From NCBI RefSeq assembly GCF_003019035.1, contig NZ_CP027447.1: 64,000 nucleotides of DNA. One strand, 5' to 3'. Below are positions 1-58,879 of the stretch, in pieces. A program made the position numbers and the translations under genes. The notes under the pieces were generated by a model. It was not told where the DNA came from, searched no databases, and saw only the letters and a program-made list of their open reading frames with translations. The first letter of the stretch is position 1. Each line of letters begins with the position of its first letter. The DNA is from Escherichia coli (GTDB lineage: Bacteria; Pseudomonadota; Gammaproteobacteria; Enterobacterales; Enterobacteriaceae).

Positions 1-2560
1 GTTCCGCGCGCGTCTGGAAAAAGGCGAAGTGCTGGATAACTTGATCCCGGAAGCCTTCGCTGTGGTGCGTGAAGCCAGTAAGCGTGTTTTTGGTATGCGT
101 CACTTCGACGTTCAGTTACTCGGCGGTATGGTTCTTAACGAACGCTGCATCGCCGAAATGCGTACCGGTGAAGGTAAAACCCTGACCGCAACGCTGCCTG
201 CTTACCTGAACGCACTAACCGGTAAAGGCGTGCATGTAGTTACCGTCAACGACTACCTGGCGCAACGTGACGCCGAAAACAACCGTCCGCTGTTTGAATT
301 CCTTGGCCTGACTGTTGGTATCAACCTGCCGGGCATGCCAGCACCGGCAAAGCGTGAAGCTTACGCAGCTGACATCACTTACGGTACGAACAACGAATAC
401 GGCTTTGACTACCTGCGCGACAACATGGCGTTCAGTCCTGAAGAACGTGTACAGCGTAAACTGCACTATGCGCTGGTGGACGAAGTGGACTCCATCCTGA
501 TCGATGAAGCGCGTACACCGCTGATCATTTCCGGCCCGGCAGAAGACAGCTCGGAAATGTATAAACGCGTGAATAAAATTATTCCGCACCTGATCCGTCA
601 GGAAAAAGAAGACTCCGAAACCTTCCAGGGCGAAGGCCACTTCTCGGTGGATGAAAAATCTCGCCAGGTGAACCTGACCGAACGTGGTCTGGTCCTGATT
701 GAAGAACTGCTGGTTAAAGAAGGCATCATGGATGAAGGAGAGTCTCTGTACTCTCCGGCCAACATCATGCTGATGCACCACGTAACGGCGGCGCTGCGCG
801 CTCATGCGCTGTTTACCCGAGACGTCGACTACATCGTTAAAGATGGTGAAGTTATCATCGTTGACGAACACACCGGTCGTACCATGCAGGGGCGTCGCTG
901 GTCCGATGGTCTGCACCAGGCAGTGGAAGCGAAAGAAGGTGTACAGATCCAGAACGAAAACCAGACGCTGGCGTCGATCACCTTCCAGAACTACTTCCGT
1001 CTGTATGAAAAACTGGCGGGGATGACCGGTACTGCTGATACCGAAGCTTTCGAATTCAGCTCCATCTATAAGCTGGATACCGTCGTTGTTCCGACCAACC
1101 GTCCAATGATTCGTAAAGATCTGCCGGACCTGGTCTACATGACTGAAGCGGAAAAAATTCAGGCGATCATTGAAGATATCAAAGAACGTACTGCGAAAGG
1201 CCAGCCGGTGCTGGTGGGTACTATCTCCATCGAAAAATCGGAGCTGGTATCAAACGAACTGACCAAAGCCGGTATTAAGCACAACGTCCTGAACGCCAAA
1301 TTCCACGCCAACGAAGCGGCGATTGTTGCTCAGGCAGGTTATCCGGCAGCGGTGACTATCGCGACCAACATGGCGGGTCGTGGTACCGATATTGTGCTCG
1401 GTGGTAGCTGGCAGGCAGAAGTTGCCGCGCTGGAAAATCCGACCGCAGAGCAAATTGAAAAAATTAAAGCCGACTGGCAGGTACGTCACGATGCGGTACT
1501 GGCAGCAGGTGGCCTGCATATCATCGGTACCGAGCGTCACGAATCCCGTCGTATCGATAACCAGTTGCGCGGTCGTTCTGGTCGTCAGGGGGATGCTGGT
1601 TCTTCCCGTTTCTACCTGTCGATGGAAGATGCGCTGATGCGTATTTTTGCTTCCGACCGAGTATCCGGCATGATGCGTAAACTGGGTATGAAGCCAGGCG
1701 AAGCCATTGAGCACCCGTGGGTGACCAAAGCGATTGCCAACGCCCAGCGTAAAGTTGAAAGCCGTAACTTCGACATTCGTAAGCAACTGCTGGAATATGA
1801 TGATGTGGCTAACGATCAGCGTCGCGCCATTTACTCCCAGCGTAACGAACTGCTGGATGTCAGCGATGTGAGCGAAACCATCAACAGCATTCGTGAAGAT
1901 GTGTTCAAAGCGACCATTGATGCCTACATTCCGCCACAATCGCTGGAAGAAATGTGGGATATTCCGGGACTGCAGGAACGTCTGAAGAACGATTTCGACC
2001 TCGATTTGCCAATTGCCGAGTGGCTGGATAAAGAACCAGAACTGCATGAAGAGACGCTGCGTGAGCGCATTCTGGCGCAGTCCATCGAAGTGTATCAGCG
2101 TAAAGAAGAAGTGGTTGGTGCTGAGATGATGCGTCACTTCGAGAAAGGCGTCATGCTGCAAACGCTTGACTCCCTGTGGAAAGAGCACCTGGCAGCGATG
2201 GACTATCTGCGTCAGGGTATCCACCTGCGTGGCTATGCACAGAAAGATCCGAAGCAGGAATACAAACGTGAATCGTTCTCCATGTTTGCAGCGATGCTGG
2301 AGTCGTTAAAATATGAAGTTATCAGCACGCTGAGCAAAGTTCAGGTACGTATGCCTGAAGAGGTTGAGGAGCTGGAACAACAGCGTCGTATGGAAGCCGA
2401 GCGTTTAGCGCAAATGCAGCAGCTTAGCCATCAGGATGACGACTCTGCAGCTGCAGCTGCACTGGCGGCGCAAACCGGTGAGCGCAAAGTAGGACGTAAC
2501 GATCCTTGCCCGTGCGGTTCTGGTAAAAAATACAAGCAGTGCCATGGTCGCCTGCAATGA
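1..2560 (+). CDS. secA: Preprotein translocase ATPase SecA (5' end truncated by window edge)
   Basis: Open frame continues from position 2 with no start; translated product matches SecA including the C-terminal zinc-binding tail [14 protein letters not shown]; stop at 2558-2560. Confidence 0.97.
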
Positions 2561-2579
2561 AAGCTAACAGTTGAAGTAA

Positions 2580-2606
2580 AAGGCGCAGGATTCTGCGCCT
2601 TTTTTA
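2580..2606 (+). terminator. Intrinsic terminator-like hairpin downstream of secA
   Basis: GC stem ggcgcag / tgcgcc with short loop followed by a 6-T run, 20 nt after the secA stop. Confidence 0.6.
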
Positions 2607-2619
2607 TAGGTTTAAGACA

Positions 2620-3018
2620 ATGAAAAAGCTGCAAATTGCGGTAGGTATTATTCGCAACGAGAACAATGAAATCTTTATAACCCGTCGCGCAGCAGATGCG
2701 CACATGGCGAATAAACTGGAGTTTCCTGGCGGTAAAATTGAAATGAGCGAAACGCCGGAACAGGCGGTGGTGCGTGAACTTCAGGAAGAGGTCGGGATTA
2801 CCCCACAACATTTTTCGCTATTTGAAAAACTGGAATATGAATTCCCGGACAGGCATATAACTCTGTGGTTCTGGCTGGTCGAAAGCTGGGAAGGGGAGCC
2901 GTGGGGTAAAGAAGGGCAACCCGGTGAGTGGATGTCGCTGGTCGGTCTGAATGCCGATGATTTTCCGCCAGCCAATGAACCGGTAATTGCGAAGCTTAAG
3001 CGCGTGTACGTCGGATAG
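2620..3018 (+). CDS. mutT: 8-oxo-dGTP diphosphatase MutT (Nudix hydrolase)
   Basis: 132-aa ORF; Nudix box GGKIEMSETPEQAVVRELQEEVGI; RBS-like aagaca upstream of ATG. Confidence 0.95.
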   Translation: MKKLQIAVGIIRNENNEIFITRRAADAHMANKLEFPGGKIEMSETPEQAVVRELQEEVGITPQHFSLFEKLEYEFPDRHITLWFWLVESWEGEPWGKEGQPGEWMSLVGLNADDFPPANEPVIAKLKRVYVG

Positions 3019-3044
3019 GTGTTTATGCCGCATCCGACATTTGC

Positions 3045-3100
3045 ACACGATGCCTGATGCGACGCTGCCCGCGTCTTATCAGGCCAGCGTCGCATCAGAC
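3045..3100. repeat. REP-like extragenic palindromic element(s)
   Basis: gcctgatgcgacgctg...cgcgtcttatcaggcc plus inverted copy cagcgtcgcatcag; typical enterobacterial REP palindromic unit between mutT and yacG. Confidence 0.7.
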
Positions 3101-53663: not shown

Positions 53664-56093
53664 GTGTCGTCGTTGCCCGTTGCTGCCGTCTTACCTGAGT
53701 TACTTGCTGCCCTCGATGGTGCACCGCAGGTGTTATTAAGTGCGCCGACCGGGGCCGGGAAATCAACCTGGCTGCCGCTGCAACTGCTGGCGCATCCCGG
53801 CATTAACGGAAAAATTATCCTGCTGGAGCCGCGTCGTCTGGCGGCGCGTAACGTCGCGCAACGGCTGGCGGAGCTGCTTAACGAAAAGCCAGGCGATACC
53901 GTTGGCTACCGGATGCGTGCGCAAAACTGCGTCGGCCCGAATACCCGCCTGGAAGTGGTTACCGAAGGCGTGCTGACGCGCATGATCCAGCGTGACCCGG
54001 AACTGAGCGGTGTTGGATTGGTGATCCTCGATGAGTTTCATGAGCGCAGTTTGCAGGCGGATTTGGCGTTGGCGCTGTTACTCGATGTGCAACAAGGTCT
54101 GCGTGATGACCTTAAACTGCTGATTATGTCGGCTACGCTGGACAACGACCGCTTGCAGCAAATGCTGCCAGAAGCGCCCGTCATCATCTCAGAAGGGCGC
54201 TCGTTTCCGGTTGAACTCCGTTATTTACCGCTGCCCGCGCATCAGCGTTTTGACGAAGCCGTTGCGGTAGCCACCGCCGAAATGCTGCGTCAGGAAAGCG
54301 GATCATTACTGTTATTTTTACCTGGCGTCGGAGAAATTCAGCGTGTGCAGGAACAACTGGCTTCGCGCATCGGCAGTGATGTGTTGCTCTGCCCGCTGTA
54401 TGGCGCGTTGTCGCTGAACGATCAGCGAAAAGCGATCCTCCCGGCACCGCAAGGGATGCGCAAAGTGGTGCTGGCGACCAATATTGCTGAAACCAGTTTA
54501 ACCATTGAAGGTATTCGTCTGGTGGTGGATTGTGCCCAGGAGAGGGTGGCGCGTTTTGATCCGCGTACAGGGCTTACGCGGTTGATTACTCAACGCGTTA
54601 GTCAGGCGTCGATGACGCAACGTGCCGGGCGTGCCGGGCGTCTGGAGCCGGGTATCTGCCTGCATTTAATCGCCAAAGAACAAGCAGAACGCGCTGCCGC
54701 GCAAAGTGAACCGGAGATCTTACAAAGCGATCTTTCCGGTTTGCTGATGGAATTACTGCAATGGGGATGCAGCGATCCGGCGCAGATGAGCTGGCTGGAT
54801 CAACCGCCAACGGTGAATCTACTGGCCGCGAAACGCCTGTTACGGATGCTGGGGGCGCTGGACGGTGAACGGCTTAGTGCGCAAGGGCAAAAAATGGCAG
54901 CGCTGGGTAACGATCCGCGTTTAGCGGCAATGCTGGTTAGCGCGAAGAACGACGACGAAGCTGCTACCGCGGCAAAAATTGCCGCCATTCTCGAAGAGCC
55001 GCCACGGATGGGCAATAGTGACCTGGGCGTGGCGTTTTCGCGCAATCAACCCGCCTGGCAGCAACGTAGTCAGCAACTGTTAAAACGCTTAAACGTACGC
55101 GGCGGTGAGGCAGACAGTTCGCTTATCGCGCCGCTACTTGCCAGAGCGTATGCCGATCGCATTGCTCGTCGCCGTGGGCAAGATGGACGCTATCAACTGG
55201 CAAACGGCATGGGGGCGATGCTCGATGCCGACGATGCGCTAAGCCGCCACGAATGGTTGATCGCACCGTTATTATTGCAGGGCAGCGCCTCGCCGGATGC
55301 GCGGATTTTACTGGCGCTGCCGGTCGATATTGATGAGTTAGTACAACGCTGCCCGCAGCTGGTACAGCAATCGGACACCGTGGAGTGGGATGACGCGCAA
55401 GGTACGCTGAAAGCCTGGCGTCGGCTGCAAATCGGTCAGTTGATGGTGAAAGTGCAGCCACTGGCGAAACCCTCGGAAGACGAGTTGCATCAGGCGATGC
55501 TTAACGGCATTCGTGATAAAGGTTTAAGCGTGCTCAACTGGACGGCGGAAGCGGAACAGCTACGCTTGCGTTTGTTATGCGCCGCAAAGTGGTTGCCGGA
55601 ATATGACTGGCCAGCGGTTGATGATGAAAGTTTGTTGGCGACGCTGGAAACGTGGCTACTGCCGCATATGACAGGCGTACATTCGCTACGCGGCCTGAAA
55701 TCACTCGATATTTATCAGGCACTGCGTGGATTACTTGATTGGGTAATGCAGCAACGTCTGGATAGTGAATTGCCTGCGCATTACACTGTGCCGACGGGAA
55801 GCCGGATCGCCATTCGTTACCATGAAGATAACCCGCCCGCGCTGGCGGTGAGAATGCAGGAGATGTTTGGTGAGGCCACTAATCCGACTATCGCCCAGGG
55901 GCGCGTACCGTTGGTGCTGGAGTTGCTTTCCCCTGCCCAAAGGCCGCTGCAAATCACGCGTGATTTGAGCGCCTTCTGGAAAGGAGCGTACCGTGAGGTG
56001 CAAAAAGAGATGAAAGGGCGTTATCCCAAACATGTCTGGCCGGACGACCCGGCAAACACCGCACCGACGCGACGAACGAAAAAGTATTCGTGA
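53664..56093 (+). CDS. hrpB: ATP-dependent RNA helicase HrpB (DEAH-box)
   Basis: GTG start giving MSSLPVAAVLPELL...; Walker A APTGAGKST, DEFH box ILDEFHERS; 809 aa. Confidence 0.92.
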   Translation: MSSLPVAAVLPELLAALDGAPQVLLSAPTGAGKSTWLPLQLLAHPGINGKIILLEPRRLAARNVAQRLAELLNEKPGDTVGYRMRAQNCVGPNTRLEVVTEGVLTRMIQRDPELSGVGLVILDEFHERSLQADLALALLLDVQQGLRDDLKLLIMSATLDNDRLQQMLPEAPVIISEGRSFPVELRYLPLPAHQRFDEAVAVATAEMLRQESGSLLLFLPGVGEIQRVQEQLASRIGSDVLLCPLYGALSLNDQRKAILPAPQGMRKVVLATNIAETSLTIEGIRLVVDCAQERVARFDPRTGLTRLITQRVSQASMTQRAGRAGRLEPGICLHLIAKEQAERAAAQSEPEILQSDLSGLLMELLQWGCSDPAQMSWLDQPPTVNLLAAKRLLRMLGALDGERLSAQGQKMAALGNDPRLAAMLVSAKNDDEAATAAKIAAILEEPPRMGNSDLGVAFSRNQPAWQQRSQQLLKRLNVRGGEADSSLIAPLLARAYADRIARRRGQDGRYQLANGMGAMLDADDALSRHEWLIAPLLLQGSASPDARILLALPVDIDELVQRCPQLVQQSDTVEWDDAQGTLKAWRRLQIGQLMVKVQPLAKPSEDELHQAMLNGIRDKGLSVLNWTAEAEQLRLRLLCAAKWLPEYDWPAVDDESLLATLETWLLPHMTGVHSLRGLKSLDIYQALRGLLDWVMQQRLDSELPAHYTVPTGSRIAIRYHEDNPPALAVRMQEMFGEATNPTIAQGRVPLVLELLSPAQRPLQITRDLSAFWKGAYREVQKEMKGRYPKHVWPDDPANTAPTRRTKKYS

Positions 56094-56186
56094 AGACCAA
56101 AGCAAATTTGAGAGATATCTTCTTCTGTCTTGCAACAGAAGAACAGAAAATCGGGCTTTTGCGCCTGAATATTGCGGAGAAAAAGC

Positions 56187-58721
56187 ATGGCCGGGAATGA
56201 CCGCGAGCCAATTGGACGCAAAGGGAAACCGACGCGTCCGGTCAAACAAAAGGTAAGCCGTCGTCGTTACGAAGATGACGATGATTACGACGATTATGAT
56301 GACTATGAGGATGAAGAACCGATGCCGCGCAAAGGTAAGGGCAAAGGCAAAGGGCGTAAGCCTCGTGGCAAACGCGGCTGGCTATGGCTGCTGCTAAAAC
56401 TGGCTATCGTTTTTGCCGTGCTGATCGCCATTTACGGCGTTTATCTCGATCAAAAAATTCGCAGCCGTATTGATGGCAAGGTCTGGCAATTGCCCGCGGC
56501 AGTTTATGGTCGAATGGTCAACCTTGAGCCAGACATGACCATCAGCAAGAACGAGATGGTGAAGCTGCTGGAGGCGACCCAGTATCGCCAGGTGTCGAAA
56601 ATGACCCGTCCTGGTGAGTTTACCGTACAGGCCAACAGCATTGAGATGATCCGCCGTCCGTTTGATTTCCCGGACAGCAAAGAAGGGCAGGTGCGCGCGC
56701 GTCTGACCTTTGATGGCGATCATCTGGCGACGATCGTCAATATGGAGAACAACCGTCAGTTCGGTTTCTTCCGTCTTGATCCGCGCCTGATCACTATGAT
56801 CTCTTCACCAAACGGTGAGCAGCGTCTGTTTGTGCCGCGCAGTGGTTTCCCGGATTTGCTGGTGGATACTTTGCTGGCGACAGAAGACCGTCATTTCTAC
56901 GAGCATGATGGGATCAGTCTCTACTCAATCGGACGTGCGGTGCTGGCAAACCTGACTGCCGGACGCACGGTGCAGGGGGCGAGTACGCTGACGCAACAGT
57001 TGGTTAAAAACCTGTTCCTCTCCAGCGAGCGTTCTTACTGGCGTAAAGCGAACGAAGCCTACATGGCGCTGATCATGGACGCGCGTTACAGCAAAGACCG
57101 TATTCTTGAGCTGTATATGAACGAGGTGTATCTCGGTCAGAGCGGCGACAACGAAATCCGCGGCTTCCCGCTGGCGAGCTTGTATTACTTTGGTCGCCCG
57201 GTAGAAGAATTGAGCCTCGATCAGCAGGCGCTGTTGGTGGGTATGGTGAAAGGGGCGTCCATCTACAACCCGTGGCGTAACCCGAAACTGGCGCTGGAGC
57301 GACGTAACCTGGTACTGCGTCTGCTGCAACAGCAACAGATTATTGATCAAGAACTCTATGACATGTTGAGTGCACGTCCGCTGGGTGTTCAGCCGCGCGG
57401 TGGGGTGATCTCTCCTCAGCCAGCCTTTATGCAACTGGTGCGTCAGGAGCTGCAGGCGAAATTAGGCGATAAGGTAAAAGATCTCTCCGGCGTGAAGATC
57501 TTCACTACCTTTGACTCGGTGGCCCAGGACGCGGCAGAAAAAGCCGCCGTGGAAGGCATTCCGGCACTGAAAAAACAGCGTAAGTTGAGCGATCTTGAAA
57601 CCGCGATTGTGGTTGTTGACCGCTTTAGCGGTGAAGTTCGTGCGATGGTCGGTGGTTCTGAGCCGCAGTTTGCGGGCTACAACCGTGCGATGCAGGCGCG
57701 TCGTTCGATTGGTTCCCTTGCAAAACCAGCGACTTATCTGACTGCCTTAAGCCAGCCGAAAATCTATCGTTTGAATACGTGGATTGCCGATGCGCCAATC
57801 GCGCTGCGTCAGCCGAATGGCCAGGTCTGGTCACCGCAGAACGATGACCGTCGTTATAGCGAAAGTGGCAGAGTGATGCTGGTGGATGCGTTGACCCGTT
57901 CGATGAACGTGCCGACGGTGAATCTGGGGATGGCGCTGGGGCTGCCTGCGGTTACGGAGACCTGGATTAAACTGGGCGTACCGAAAGATCAGCTGCATCC
58001 GGTTCCGGCGATGCTGCTGGGGGCGTTGAACTTAACGCCAATCGAAGTGGCGCAGGCATTCCAGACTATCGCCAGCGGCGGTAACCGTGCACCGCTTTCT
58101 GCGCTGCGTTCGGTAATTGCGGAAGATGGCAAAGTGCTGTATCAGAGCTTCCCGCAGGCGGAACGCGCGGTTCCGGCGCAGGCGGCGTATCTGACACTAT
58201 GGACCATGCAGCAGGTGGTACAACGTGGTACGGGGCGTCAGCTTGGGGCGAAATACCCGAACCTGCATCTGGCAGGGAAAACAGGAACTACCAACAATAA
58301 CGTAGATACCTGGTTTGCGGGCATTGACGGCAGCACGGTGACCATCACCTGGGTAGGCCGTGATAACAACCAACCGACCAAACTGTATGGAGCCAGCGGG
58401 GCAATGTCGATTTATCAGCGTTATCTGGCTAACCAGACGCCAACACCGCTGAATCTTGTTCCGCCGGAAGATATTGCAGATATGGGCGTGGACTACGACG
58501 GCAACTTTGTTTGCAGCGGTGGTATGCGTGTCTTGCCGGTCTGGACCAGCGATCCGCAATCGCTGTGCCAGCAGAGTGAGATGCAGCAGCAGCCGTCAGG
58601 CAATCCGTTTGATCAGTCTTCTCAGCCGCAGCAACAGCCGCAACAGCAACCTGCTCAGCAAGAGCAGAAAGACAGCGACGGTGTAGCCGGTTGGATCAAG
58701 GATATGTTTGGTAGTAATTAA
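56187..58721 (+). CDS. mrcB: Penicillin-binding protein 1B (bifunctional glycosyltransferase/transpeptidase)
   Basis: Start at [18 protein letters not shown]; 844 aa; acidic [15 protein letters not shown] tract, TM segment, Gln/Pro-rich C-terminus. Confidence 0.96.
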
Positions 58722-58879
58722 CGTCTAAGCGTGACATACCGGATGGCGAGTAGCCATCCGGTAAAATAACATCCCACCTAAAGTATTAACCCTTTCTTTT
58801 CATCTGGTTGTTTATTAACCCTTCAGGAACGCTCAGATTGCGTACCGCTTGCGAACCCGCCAGCGTTTCGAATATTATC

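Follow-up and report, generated by a model that had tools for sequence, protein, structure and literature searches.

The perfect inverted repeat between hrpB and mrcB is an RNA structure that is read in the sense of mrcB and is under selection as plus-strand RNA. The hairpin is very probably functional, judging from the compensating mutations that have kept its stem in 81 enterobacterial species. We consider it reasonably probable that the dyad is the apex of a conserved RNA stem-loop in the mrcB leader which acts in cis on mrcB expression, and that it is neither a terminator nor a DNA operator. For the hairpin itself, the following is established: the structure exists, it is transcribed within the leader, it is not a site of 3′ ends, and it is neither repeated nor coding.

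Positions are those of the window, meaning the whole 64-kb stretch of DNA that was analysed, and the features of the locus are collected in Table 1. The repeat had been picked up in a first-pass annotation, which placed it exactly between the hrpB stop (56091-56093) and the mrcB start (ATG at 56187), a spacer of 56094-56186. The perfect dyad reported there is real; the extent given for it, about 56121-56146, is off by 1-3 nt, and the division into arms and loop is 9-6-9 and not 9-7-8. A repeat finder returns a left arm TTCTTCTGT (56120-56128) and a right arm ACAGAAGAA (56135-56143) that are 100% complementary, giving nine perfect pairs (three of the nine G-C) around a 6-nt loop, CTTGCA (56129-56134). 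The dyad lies upstream of the mrcB ATG at a distance of 44 nt.

Table 1. Features of the hrpB-mrcB junction and the mrcB leader, in window coordinates
Feature	Position	Strand	Basis or remark
-35 hexamer TGGATA, inside the hrpB coding sequence	55759-55764	+	17 nt upstream of the -10; codon freezing
-10 hexamer TACACT, intragenic	55782-55787	+	ends 7 nt before the start site
mrcB mRNA start site (an A)	55794	+	MG1655 164,235; Cappable-seq (PMC4782308)
mrcB 5′ leader, 393 nt in this strain	55794-56186	+	first 300 nt overlap the hrpB 3′ end
Conserved 79-nt leader module, TTGAGAGAT to the base before the ATG	56108-56186	+	near-invariance in 81 species
Invariant 9-mer TTGAGAGAT	56108-56116	+	column entropy 0 for TTGAGAGA
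Extended stem-loop	56116-56149	+	lower helix 56116-56120 / 56145-56149, 2-nt bulge, core register shifted by one pair
Core hairpin (the reported palindrome)	56120-56143	+	perfect inverted repeat, folding, cross-species pairing
Conserved GA(A/G)AATC motif	56146-56152	+	forms the lower helix 3′ strand; no other hexamer is consistently -10-like
Second hairpin, stem CGGGC / GCCTG, loop TTTTGC	56152-56167	+	pair probability 0.92
mrcB Shine-Dalgarno GGAG and start codon	56176-56179; ATG 56187-56189	+	sequence, ORF, annotation

Perfect 9-bp dyads with loops of 3-10 nt have 22 raw matches at 13 places in the 64-kb window, compared to 2.0 ± 1.3 expected from dinucleotide shuffles of the same window; by our own arithmetic, about 0.003 chance dyads are expected per 94-nt spacer. 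Because such dyads are not rare in the window, the sequence of a single genome is not decisive and the cross-species evidence is. One further dyad in the window, an 11-bp perfect repeat with CCGGATGGC (REP-like) at 58737-58763, sits just past the mrcB stop (58721) and before fhuA, and is probably the 3′ hairpin of mrcB.

In folding, the whole spacer (107 nt) does no better than its shuffles (z = -0.21). The 39-nt hairpin region reaches -10.1 kcal/mol in this strain, and the core hairpin forms both in isolation and in the fold of the full 437-nt leader, where its pairs have probabilities of 0.67-0.74. Strains such as SK1144 and HM670 match the 501 nt around the dyad at 100% identity, and this region, annotated as hrpB followed by mrcB, is present in 5424 of 5426 complete E. 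coli genomes.

Conservation and covariation of the stem

Using the translation of 56187-57686 as the query for MrcB, we scanned one genome per species and obtained 80 loci, in which MrcB is 84-100% identical over its first 500 residues. The resulting alignment holds 81 sequences (80 other Enterobacteriaceae species and this strain) and covers Escherichia, Salmonella, Citrobacter, Enterobacter, Klebsiella, Raoultella, Kosakonia, Leclercia, Lelliottia, Kluyvera and Buttiauxella.

Across this alignment, standard pairs fill 95% of the cells of the dyad, compared to 54-62% when the partners are slid against each other. Double changes are found at five dyad pairs (87 cells), and the observed covariation was reached by none of 500 shuffles. 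The four apical pairs covary, with at least five classes of apical stem (TGT/ACA, TGC/GCA, CAC/GTG, CTC/GAG and CGC/GTG), whereas the five basal pairs (UUCUU/AAGAA) hardly change; the loop sequence varies freely among species. Among 69 distinct hairpin variants, the cells that are not Watson-Crick on the plus strand comprise 56 G·U against 7 A·C. A DNA site has no strand preference, and this excess of G·U therefore points to selection on the plus-strand RNA. Folding agrees: the hairpin region has a mean of -12.9 kcal/mol and z = -3.5 across species, with z below -2 in 94% of them.

These results bear on two points that the first-pass annotation had raised. It had named a dyad unconserved in related species as the finding that would speak against it, and the stem is kept in 80 other species. 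It had also offered a protein-binding site or an RNA structure as alternatives: covariation and the G·U bias support the RNA structure, while complementary changes in the half-sites and strand-asymmetric mismatches argue against a protein site on DNA. Two properties of cis-acting leader RNAs are thus found at this locus, namely compensatory substitutions on the transcribed strand and a location between the start site and the start codon, the latter from one published dataset together with promoter conservation.

The dyad is part of a 79-nt module that is nearly invariant in the 81 Enterobacteriaceae species. Its 5′ conservation boundary is sharp: sequence 5′ of TTGAGAG differs throughout, and the distance back to the hrpB stop ranges from 1 nt to more than 500 nt. 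With a covariance model built for the module, 56108-56186 scores 100.8 bits and no second match appears in the window. Of 5426 E. coli genomes, 5424 have a single copy of the module, which carries no RefSeq annotation.

Within the module, the flanks of the dyad, GAU(U/A)UC and GA(G/A)AAUC, are complementary, which makes a bulged stem of 14 pairs possible. Over these 14 pairs, 89.7% of cells pair across species, and the junction pair 19-44 shows a compensatory double change from U-A to C-G in Buttiauxella. In E. coli the lower helix contains an A·A mismatch and is absent from the minimum-energy fold. The second hairpin, which is GC-rich, varies only at pair 52-72: 43 species have A-U there, 29 have G·U and none has A·C, again a sign of selection on the plus-strand RNA. 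We also observed that the 9-mer TTGAGAGAT, invariant in 81 species, marks the exact 5′ edge of conservation; neither a pairing partner nor a protein site could be assigned to it. Many genera have a similar sequence, (T/C)TGAGAATC, on the 3′ side of the hairpin.

A protein search with MrcB gave only relatives with about 90% identity to it. Beyond Enterobacteriaceae, a single more distant locus (L085) was obtained, in an AT-rich genome, where MrcB is 64% identical, polA lies upstream and arn-type genes lie downstream. There, the leader module is absent from the 53-nt spacer before mrcB (L085 2948-3000). To judge from these sequences, the presence of the module may be linked to hrpB lying upstream of mrcB.

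A putative promoter inside hrpB and the long mrcB leader

The start of the mrcB mRNA was taken from published Cappable-seq data for MG1655, whose start coordinate was transferred to the window through the K-12 locus (L001). Consecutive plus-strand starts among the entries listed are 164,015, 164,235 (score 29.15) and 167,428, the last belonging to fhuA (PMC4782308). Among those entries, obtained from one strain in one condition, no plus-strand start falls between 164,235 and 167,428, and hence none in the spacer (PMC4782308). With the start site at 55794, the hairpin sits at +327 to +350 of a leader of about 393 nt. Ends of the mrcB transcript were not found in the supplements of other transcriptome studies.

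The hexamers upstream of this start are embedded in hrpB codons that hardly change. TACACT is kept in 72 of 74 species; the -10 codons CAT TAC ACT GTG are frozen at their synonymous sites (0.97-0.99), compared to 0.3-0.8 in neighbouring codons, and where the amino acid is conserved, the -35 codons CTG GAT AGT are unchanged in 99-100% of species. Read from the alignment, such frozen codons are the signature of a selected intragenic σ70 promoter for mrcB. A public RNA-seq compendium scores hrpB and mrcB as not co-transcribed and as separate transcription units, and in Salmonella the expression of mrcB is higher than that of hrpB. The locus resembles the class of genes with an intragenic promoter and a long leader, as mrcB transcription starts 300 nt before the hrpB stop from hexamers lying within codons. 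Nonetheless this class describes the context of the hairpin and not the hairpin.

In Klebsiella and Raoultella the intragenic -10 has been lost, and downstream of the hairpin there is a strong proximal sequence that resembles a promoter, TTGAGA-17-GAAAGT. Since they keep the hairpin without the intragenic -10, the hairpin must be transcribed from elsewhere in these genera.

Two other observations concern the part of the leader that overlaps hrpB. The codons CAA AAA GAG ATG (56001-56012) hardly change at their synonymous sites (0.88-0.99), a hint of a further signal embedded in the mrcB leader or in the 3′ end of hrpB. A long-range pairing of 55807-55836 with the region of the Shine-Dalgarno and AUG (56174-56206), present in the minimum-energy fold, was rejected: synonymous changes in hrpB break its pairs without compensation (for example C-G 16, A·G 28).

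The gap between the hrpB stop and the module is a hot spot of insertion, having received REP elements, boxC/'HPGQ' elements and terminator-like hairpins in different lineages (L005-L084). In this strain the gap is short, at 14 nt (56094-56107); K-12 carries 101 bp more (a boxC pair, L001 495-610) and other E. coli strains 38 bp more.

Alternative readings of the palindrome

The absence of a T-run noted in the first pass is borne out, as the stem is directly followed by CAGAAAATCGGG, and so is its judgement that the dyad is not a terminator. An intrinsic terminator was rejected on a stem with 3/9 G-C pairs, a stem tail reading CAGAAAAUC and the lack of a U-tract, and a terminator scan found no plus-strand terminator-like site in 55600-56600. 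The term-seq comparison proposed in the same annotation was made through published K-12 tables, which contain no 3′ end at the dyad (PMC7815308). The only 3′ end upstream of mrcB in these data is a weak one at 164,636, which lies 15 nt before the module and just after boxC; there is no 3′ end in 164,680-164,719, at either hairpin, and neither hrpB nor mrcB has an entry in the Rho-region file (PMC7815308).

A REP/BIME or boxC element was also rejected: the module occurs only once in each of 5424 E. coli genomes, and its sequence is unlike the flanking REP and boxC copies found elsewhere. Intrinsic terminators, REP/BIME and boxC/'HPGQ' elements are likewise dyads in intergenic spacers, and in other strains and genera some lie only a few nucleotides upstream of the module. 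The mrcB dyad differs from them all in having no U-tract, only 3/9 G-C pairs, no 3′ end, a single copy and an unrelated sequence. A known RNA family was rejected as well, the spacer having no match in Rfam 15 at gathering score. The only Rfam match within 55500-56800 is a MicF-like one on the minus strand inside mrcB (56221-56307; 22 bits against a threshold of 79, E = 2.1), and this antisense match is most likely due to chance. Elsewhere in the window, Rfam matches above gathering score are tp2 (14360-14473, minus strand), STnc40 (2536-2605, plus strand), which overlaps a long dyad (2578-2603), and naRNA4 (3009-3085, plus strand, barely above the threshold).

Among rival explanations, we regard as improbable the reading of the palindrome as a DNA element, whether an operator for a dimeric regulator or part of a promoter in the spacer. 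Such a promoter could be TTGAGA-17-TG(T/C)AAC, or could use GA(A/G)AAT as its -10 with the dyad lying over the -35 and the spacer. A constitutive RpoD promoter 'hrpB>mrcB TTGAGA-17-TGTAAC' was indeed predicted by Shimada et al. 2014 (PMC3946193), with a -35 (56108-56113) and a -10 (56131-56136, in the loop) such that the promoter overlaps bases of the dyad, and RNA polymerase holoenzyme binds near 164,658 in vitro in genomic SELEX (PMC3946193, PMC5493296). TTGAGA matches the -35 consensus at 5/6 positions, is invariant and has A/T-rich DNA upstream. The published promoter was nevertheless assigned within the SELEX peak by pattern matching alone (PMC3946193), and the same position is bound by holoenzymes with four different sigma factors, which suggests non-specific affinity (PMC3946193, PMC5493296). 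Its -10 falls in the variable hairpin loop and is unrecognisable outside Escherichia; in this strain it reads TGCAAC (3 of 6) instead of TGTAAC, and this unconserved hexamer has no mapped start. GA(A/G)AAT is the only -10-like hexamer placed alike in most species, and is among the top three candidates in 59 of 82 scanned sequences, but a conserved σ70 spacer promoter built on it was rejected, as the -35 is weak in most species (2-3 of 6 in a position-weight scan) and no start has been mapped. A promoter scan finds 0 sites in the spacer, which also has no Cappable-seq start. As for an operator, the outer half-sites TTCTTC/GAAGAA are kept in sequence, whereas the inner half-sites co-vary complementarily with 56 G·U against 7 A·C, a pattern unexpected for a protein-DNA site; a palindromic transcription-factor operator is disfavoured on these grounds, its half-sites being unconserved in sequence inside and its mismatches strand-asymmetric. 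The LexA box is CTGT-N8-ACAG, and by inspection the dyad does not fit the LexA, CRP or RcsB boxes in spacing or sequence. Quite improbable, too, is that the hairpin belongs to the 3′ end of hrpB, where it would terminate transcription non-canonically or block 3′ exonucleases. Protecting or ending transcripts is a frequent role of intergenic dyads, and several genera have only 1-3 nt between the hrpB stop and the module, which makes the hairpin the first stable structure after hrpB. Against this reading, the hairpin lacks a U-tract, and Term-seq in K-12 gives no 3′ end at it or beyond it; the hairpin is kept equally well where REP, boxC or T-run terminator-like hairpins precede the module and would make it redundant, and conservation runs unbroken to the mrcB start codon.

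The conserved block could alternatively be a gene for a small protein, with the dyad incidental, and we hold this to be highly improbable. The frame TTG-AGA-GAT... encodes 30-36 aa here, is uninterrupted in most species and has its end 12 nt inside mrcB. In one K-12 record the same frame is annotated as the 68-aa D8B36_18480 (L001 497-703; window 56090-56200), a plus-strand frame running through boxC and the mrcB leader module, with the module as its C-terminal half. A phenotype has been reported for it, since overexpression of the K-12 ORF fragment affects curli: a multicopy fragment spanning exactly the mrcB leader (D8B36_18480) lowers csgA expression 18-fold (PMC10869245). Yet the frame meets in-frame stops in at least eight species, including K. 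pneumoniae and S. enterica subsp. arizonae, and is shifted by module lengths of 77, 78, 79, 80, 82, 83 and 86 nt. Its variability shows no 3-nt periodicity (0.57/0.61/0.59 bits by codon position), its TTG is not preceded by a Shine-Dalgarno, and substitutions in the region are pairwise-complementary. The curli phenotype may accordingly be an RNA effect, in view of a frame that has no coding signature across species. Finally, a palindrome that arose by chance and has no function retains next to no probability. Chance alone would produce about two 9-bp dyads in 64 kb, and the spacer fold has z = -0.21, but the dyad is kept across genera through compensatory change, which effectively refutes this reading.

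Possible roles in mrcB expression

The reading we prefer thus remains an RNA stem-loop acting in cis on mrcB. The fixed module by the start codon, the variable leader before it and the invariant base and flanks of the stem suggest that the hairpin is most likely a cis-acting post-transcriptional element, serving mRNA stability, the context of translation or the binding of a factor.

We propose that the mRNA starts at the σ70 promoter within hrpB (55794) and would run through the end of hrpB into the 79-nt module. Immediately before the ribosome-binding site, the module would present the hairpin 56120-56143 (extending to 56116-56149), the hairpin 56152-56167 and the Shine-Dalgarno at 56176. The hairpin would then give the translation start region of mrcB a fixed local fold, insulated from a long untranslated leader that varies by lineage through REP, boxC and terminator-like insertions. 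In addition, the invariant lower stem and its flanks may be read by a trans-acting ribonuclease or RNA-binding protein, which would set mRNA stability or the rate of translation. Insulation by itself fails to explain the invariance of the unpaired TTGAGAGAT. The 18-fold drop of csgA is compatible with titration of a factor, although it is no proof, and a peptide, or the boxC portion of the clone, could instead be the source of this trans phenotype (PMC10869245).

Direct effects on the ribosome-binding site were considered and rejected. Occlusion of the Shine-Dalgarno by the pyrimidine-rich left arm is slight in silico, accessibility falling only from 0.65 to 0.53 when the right arm is held open; complementing the right arm gives a large drop in accessibility that is an artefact of the second pyrimidine tract it creates. 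An RNA thermometer or a switch that sequesters the Shine-Dalgarno does not fit a Shine-Dalgarno located outside the stem, 33 nt downstream.

Known leader structures offer two comparisons. Like stem-loops of the ompA type, which stabilise enterobacterial mRNAs, the mrcB hairpin is a local, presumably cis-acting leader hairpin 5′ of the Shine-Dalgarno whose structure is more conserved than its loop sequence. Stabilising hairpins of this type sit within a few nucleotides of the mRNA 5′ end, whereas the mrcB hairpin is 326 nt from the primary 5′ end, and sequence conservation extends to its lower stem and flanks. It would be a classical 5′-terminal stabiliser only if the leader were processed; a processed end just upstream (GAGA/U) is conceivable. 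The second comparison is with leaders recognised by proteins, such as the thrS operator, ribosomal-protein leaders, CsrA-bound leaders and the RNase III sites in the pnp and rnc leaders. The mrcB module shares with these an invariant lower stem, a covarying top, a free loop, proximity to the translation start and a long leader, and possibly also the effect of an overexpressed fragment in trans. The mrcB loop has no conserved GGA, which argues against CsrA. A typical RNase III substrate has about 20 bp, or about two helical turns; the mrcB helix is shorter, with 14-16 bp and a 2-nt bulge, to which E. coli adds an A·A mismatch.

A more specific proposal, which we put forward tentatively as the less likely form of regulation, is that the module is an undescribed structured regulatory RNA through which a dedicated trans factor tunes the synthesis of PBP1b, and that this factor is titrated when the RNA is overproduced, which could account for the weaker curli gene expression reported with the plasmid-borne region. 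Candidate factors binding the module are an RNA-binding protein, a ribonuclease, or the product of hrpB, the always-adjacent gene for an RNA-dependent NTPase.

The hairpin is in any case an undescribed element of a familiar class, the conserved leader stem-loops. E. coli has two main peptidoglycan synthases; PBP1b, the product of mrcB, is one of them and is a target of β-lactams, and its control is understood almost wholly at the level of the protein, through LpoB, CpoB and FtsN. In the literature we searched, we found nothing on control of the mrcB mRNA. Three testable handles on this gene emerge from our analysis: a putative promoter hidden in hrpB, a long leader that tolerates insertions, and a compact covarying module by the start codon. 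If the hairpin sets mRNA stability or translation, it would provide a simple point at which the level of PBP1b could be coupled to the state of the envelope, and the phenotype of a 'conserved hypothetical protein' would have to be re-read as an effect of RNA. If the hairpin is only a structural insulator, it would still be a clean example of selection on local mRNA folding near a start codon.
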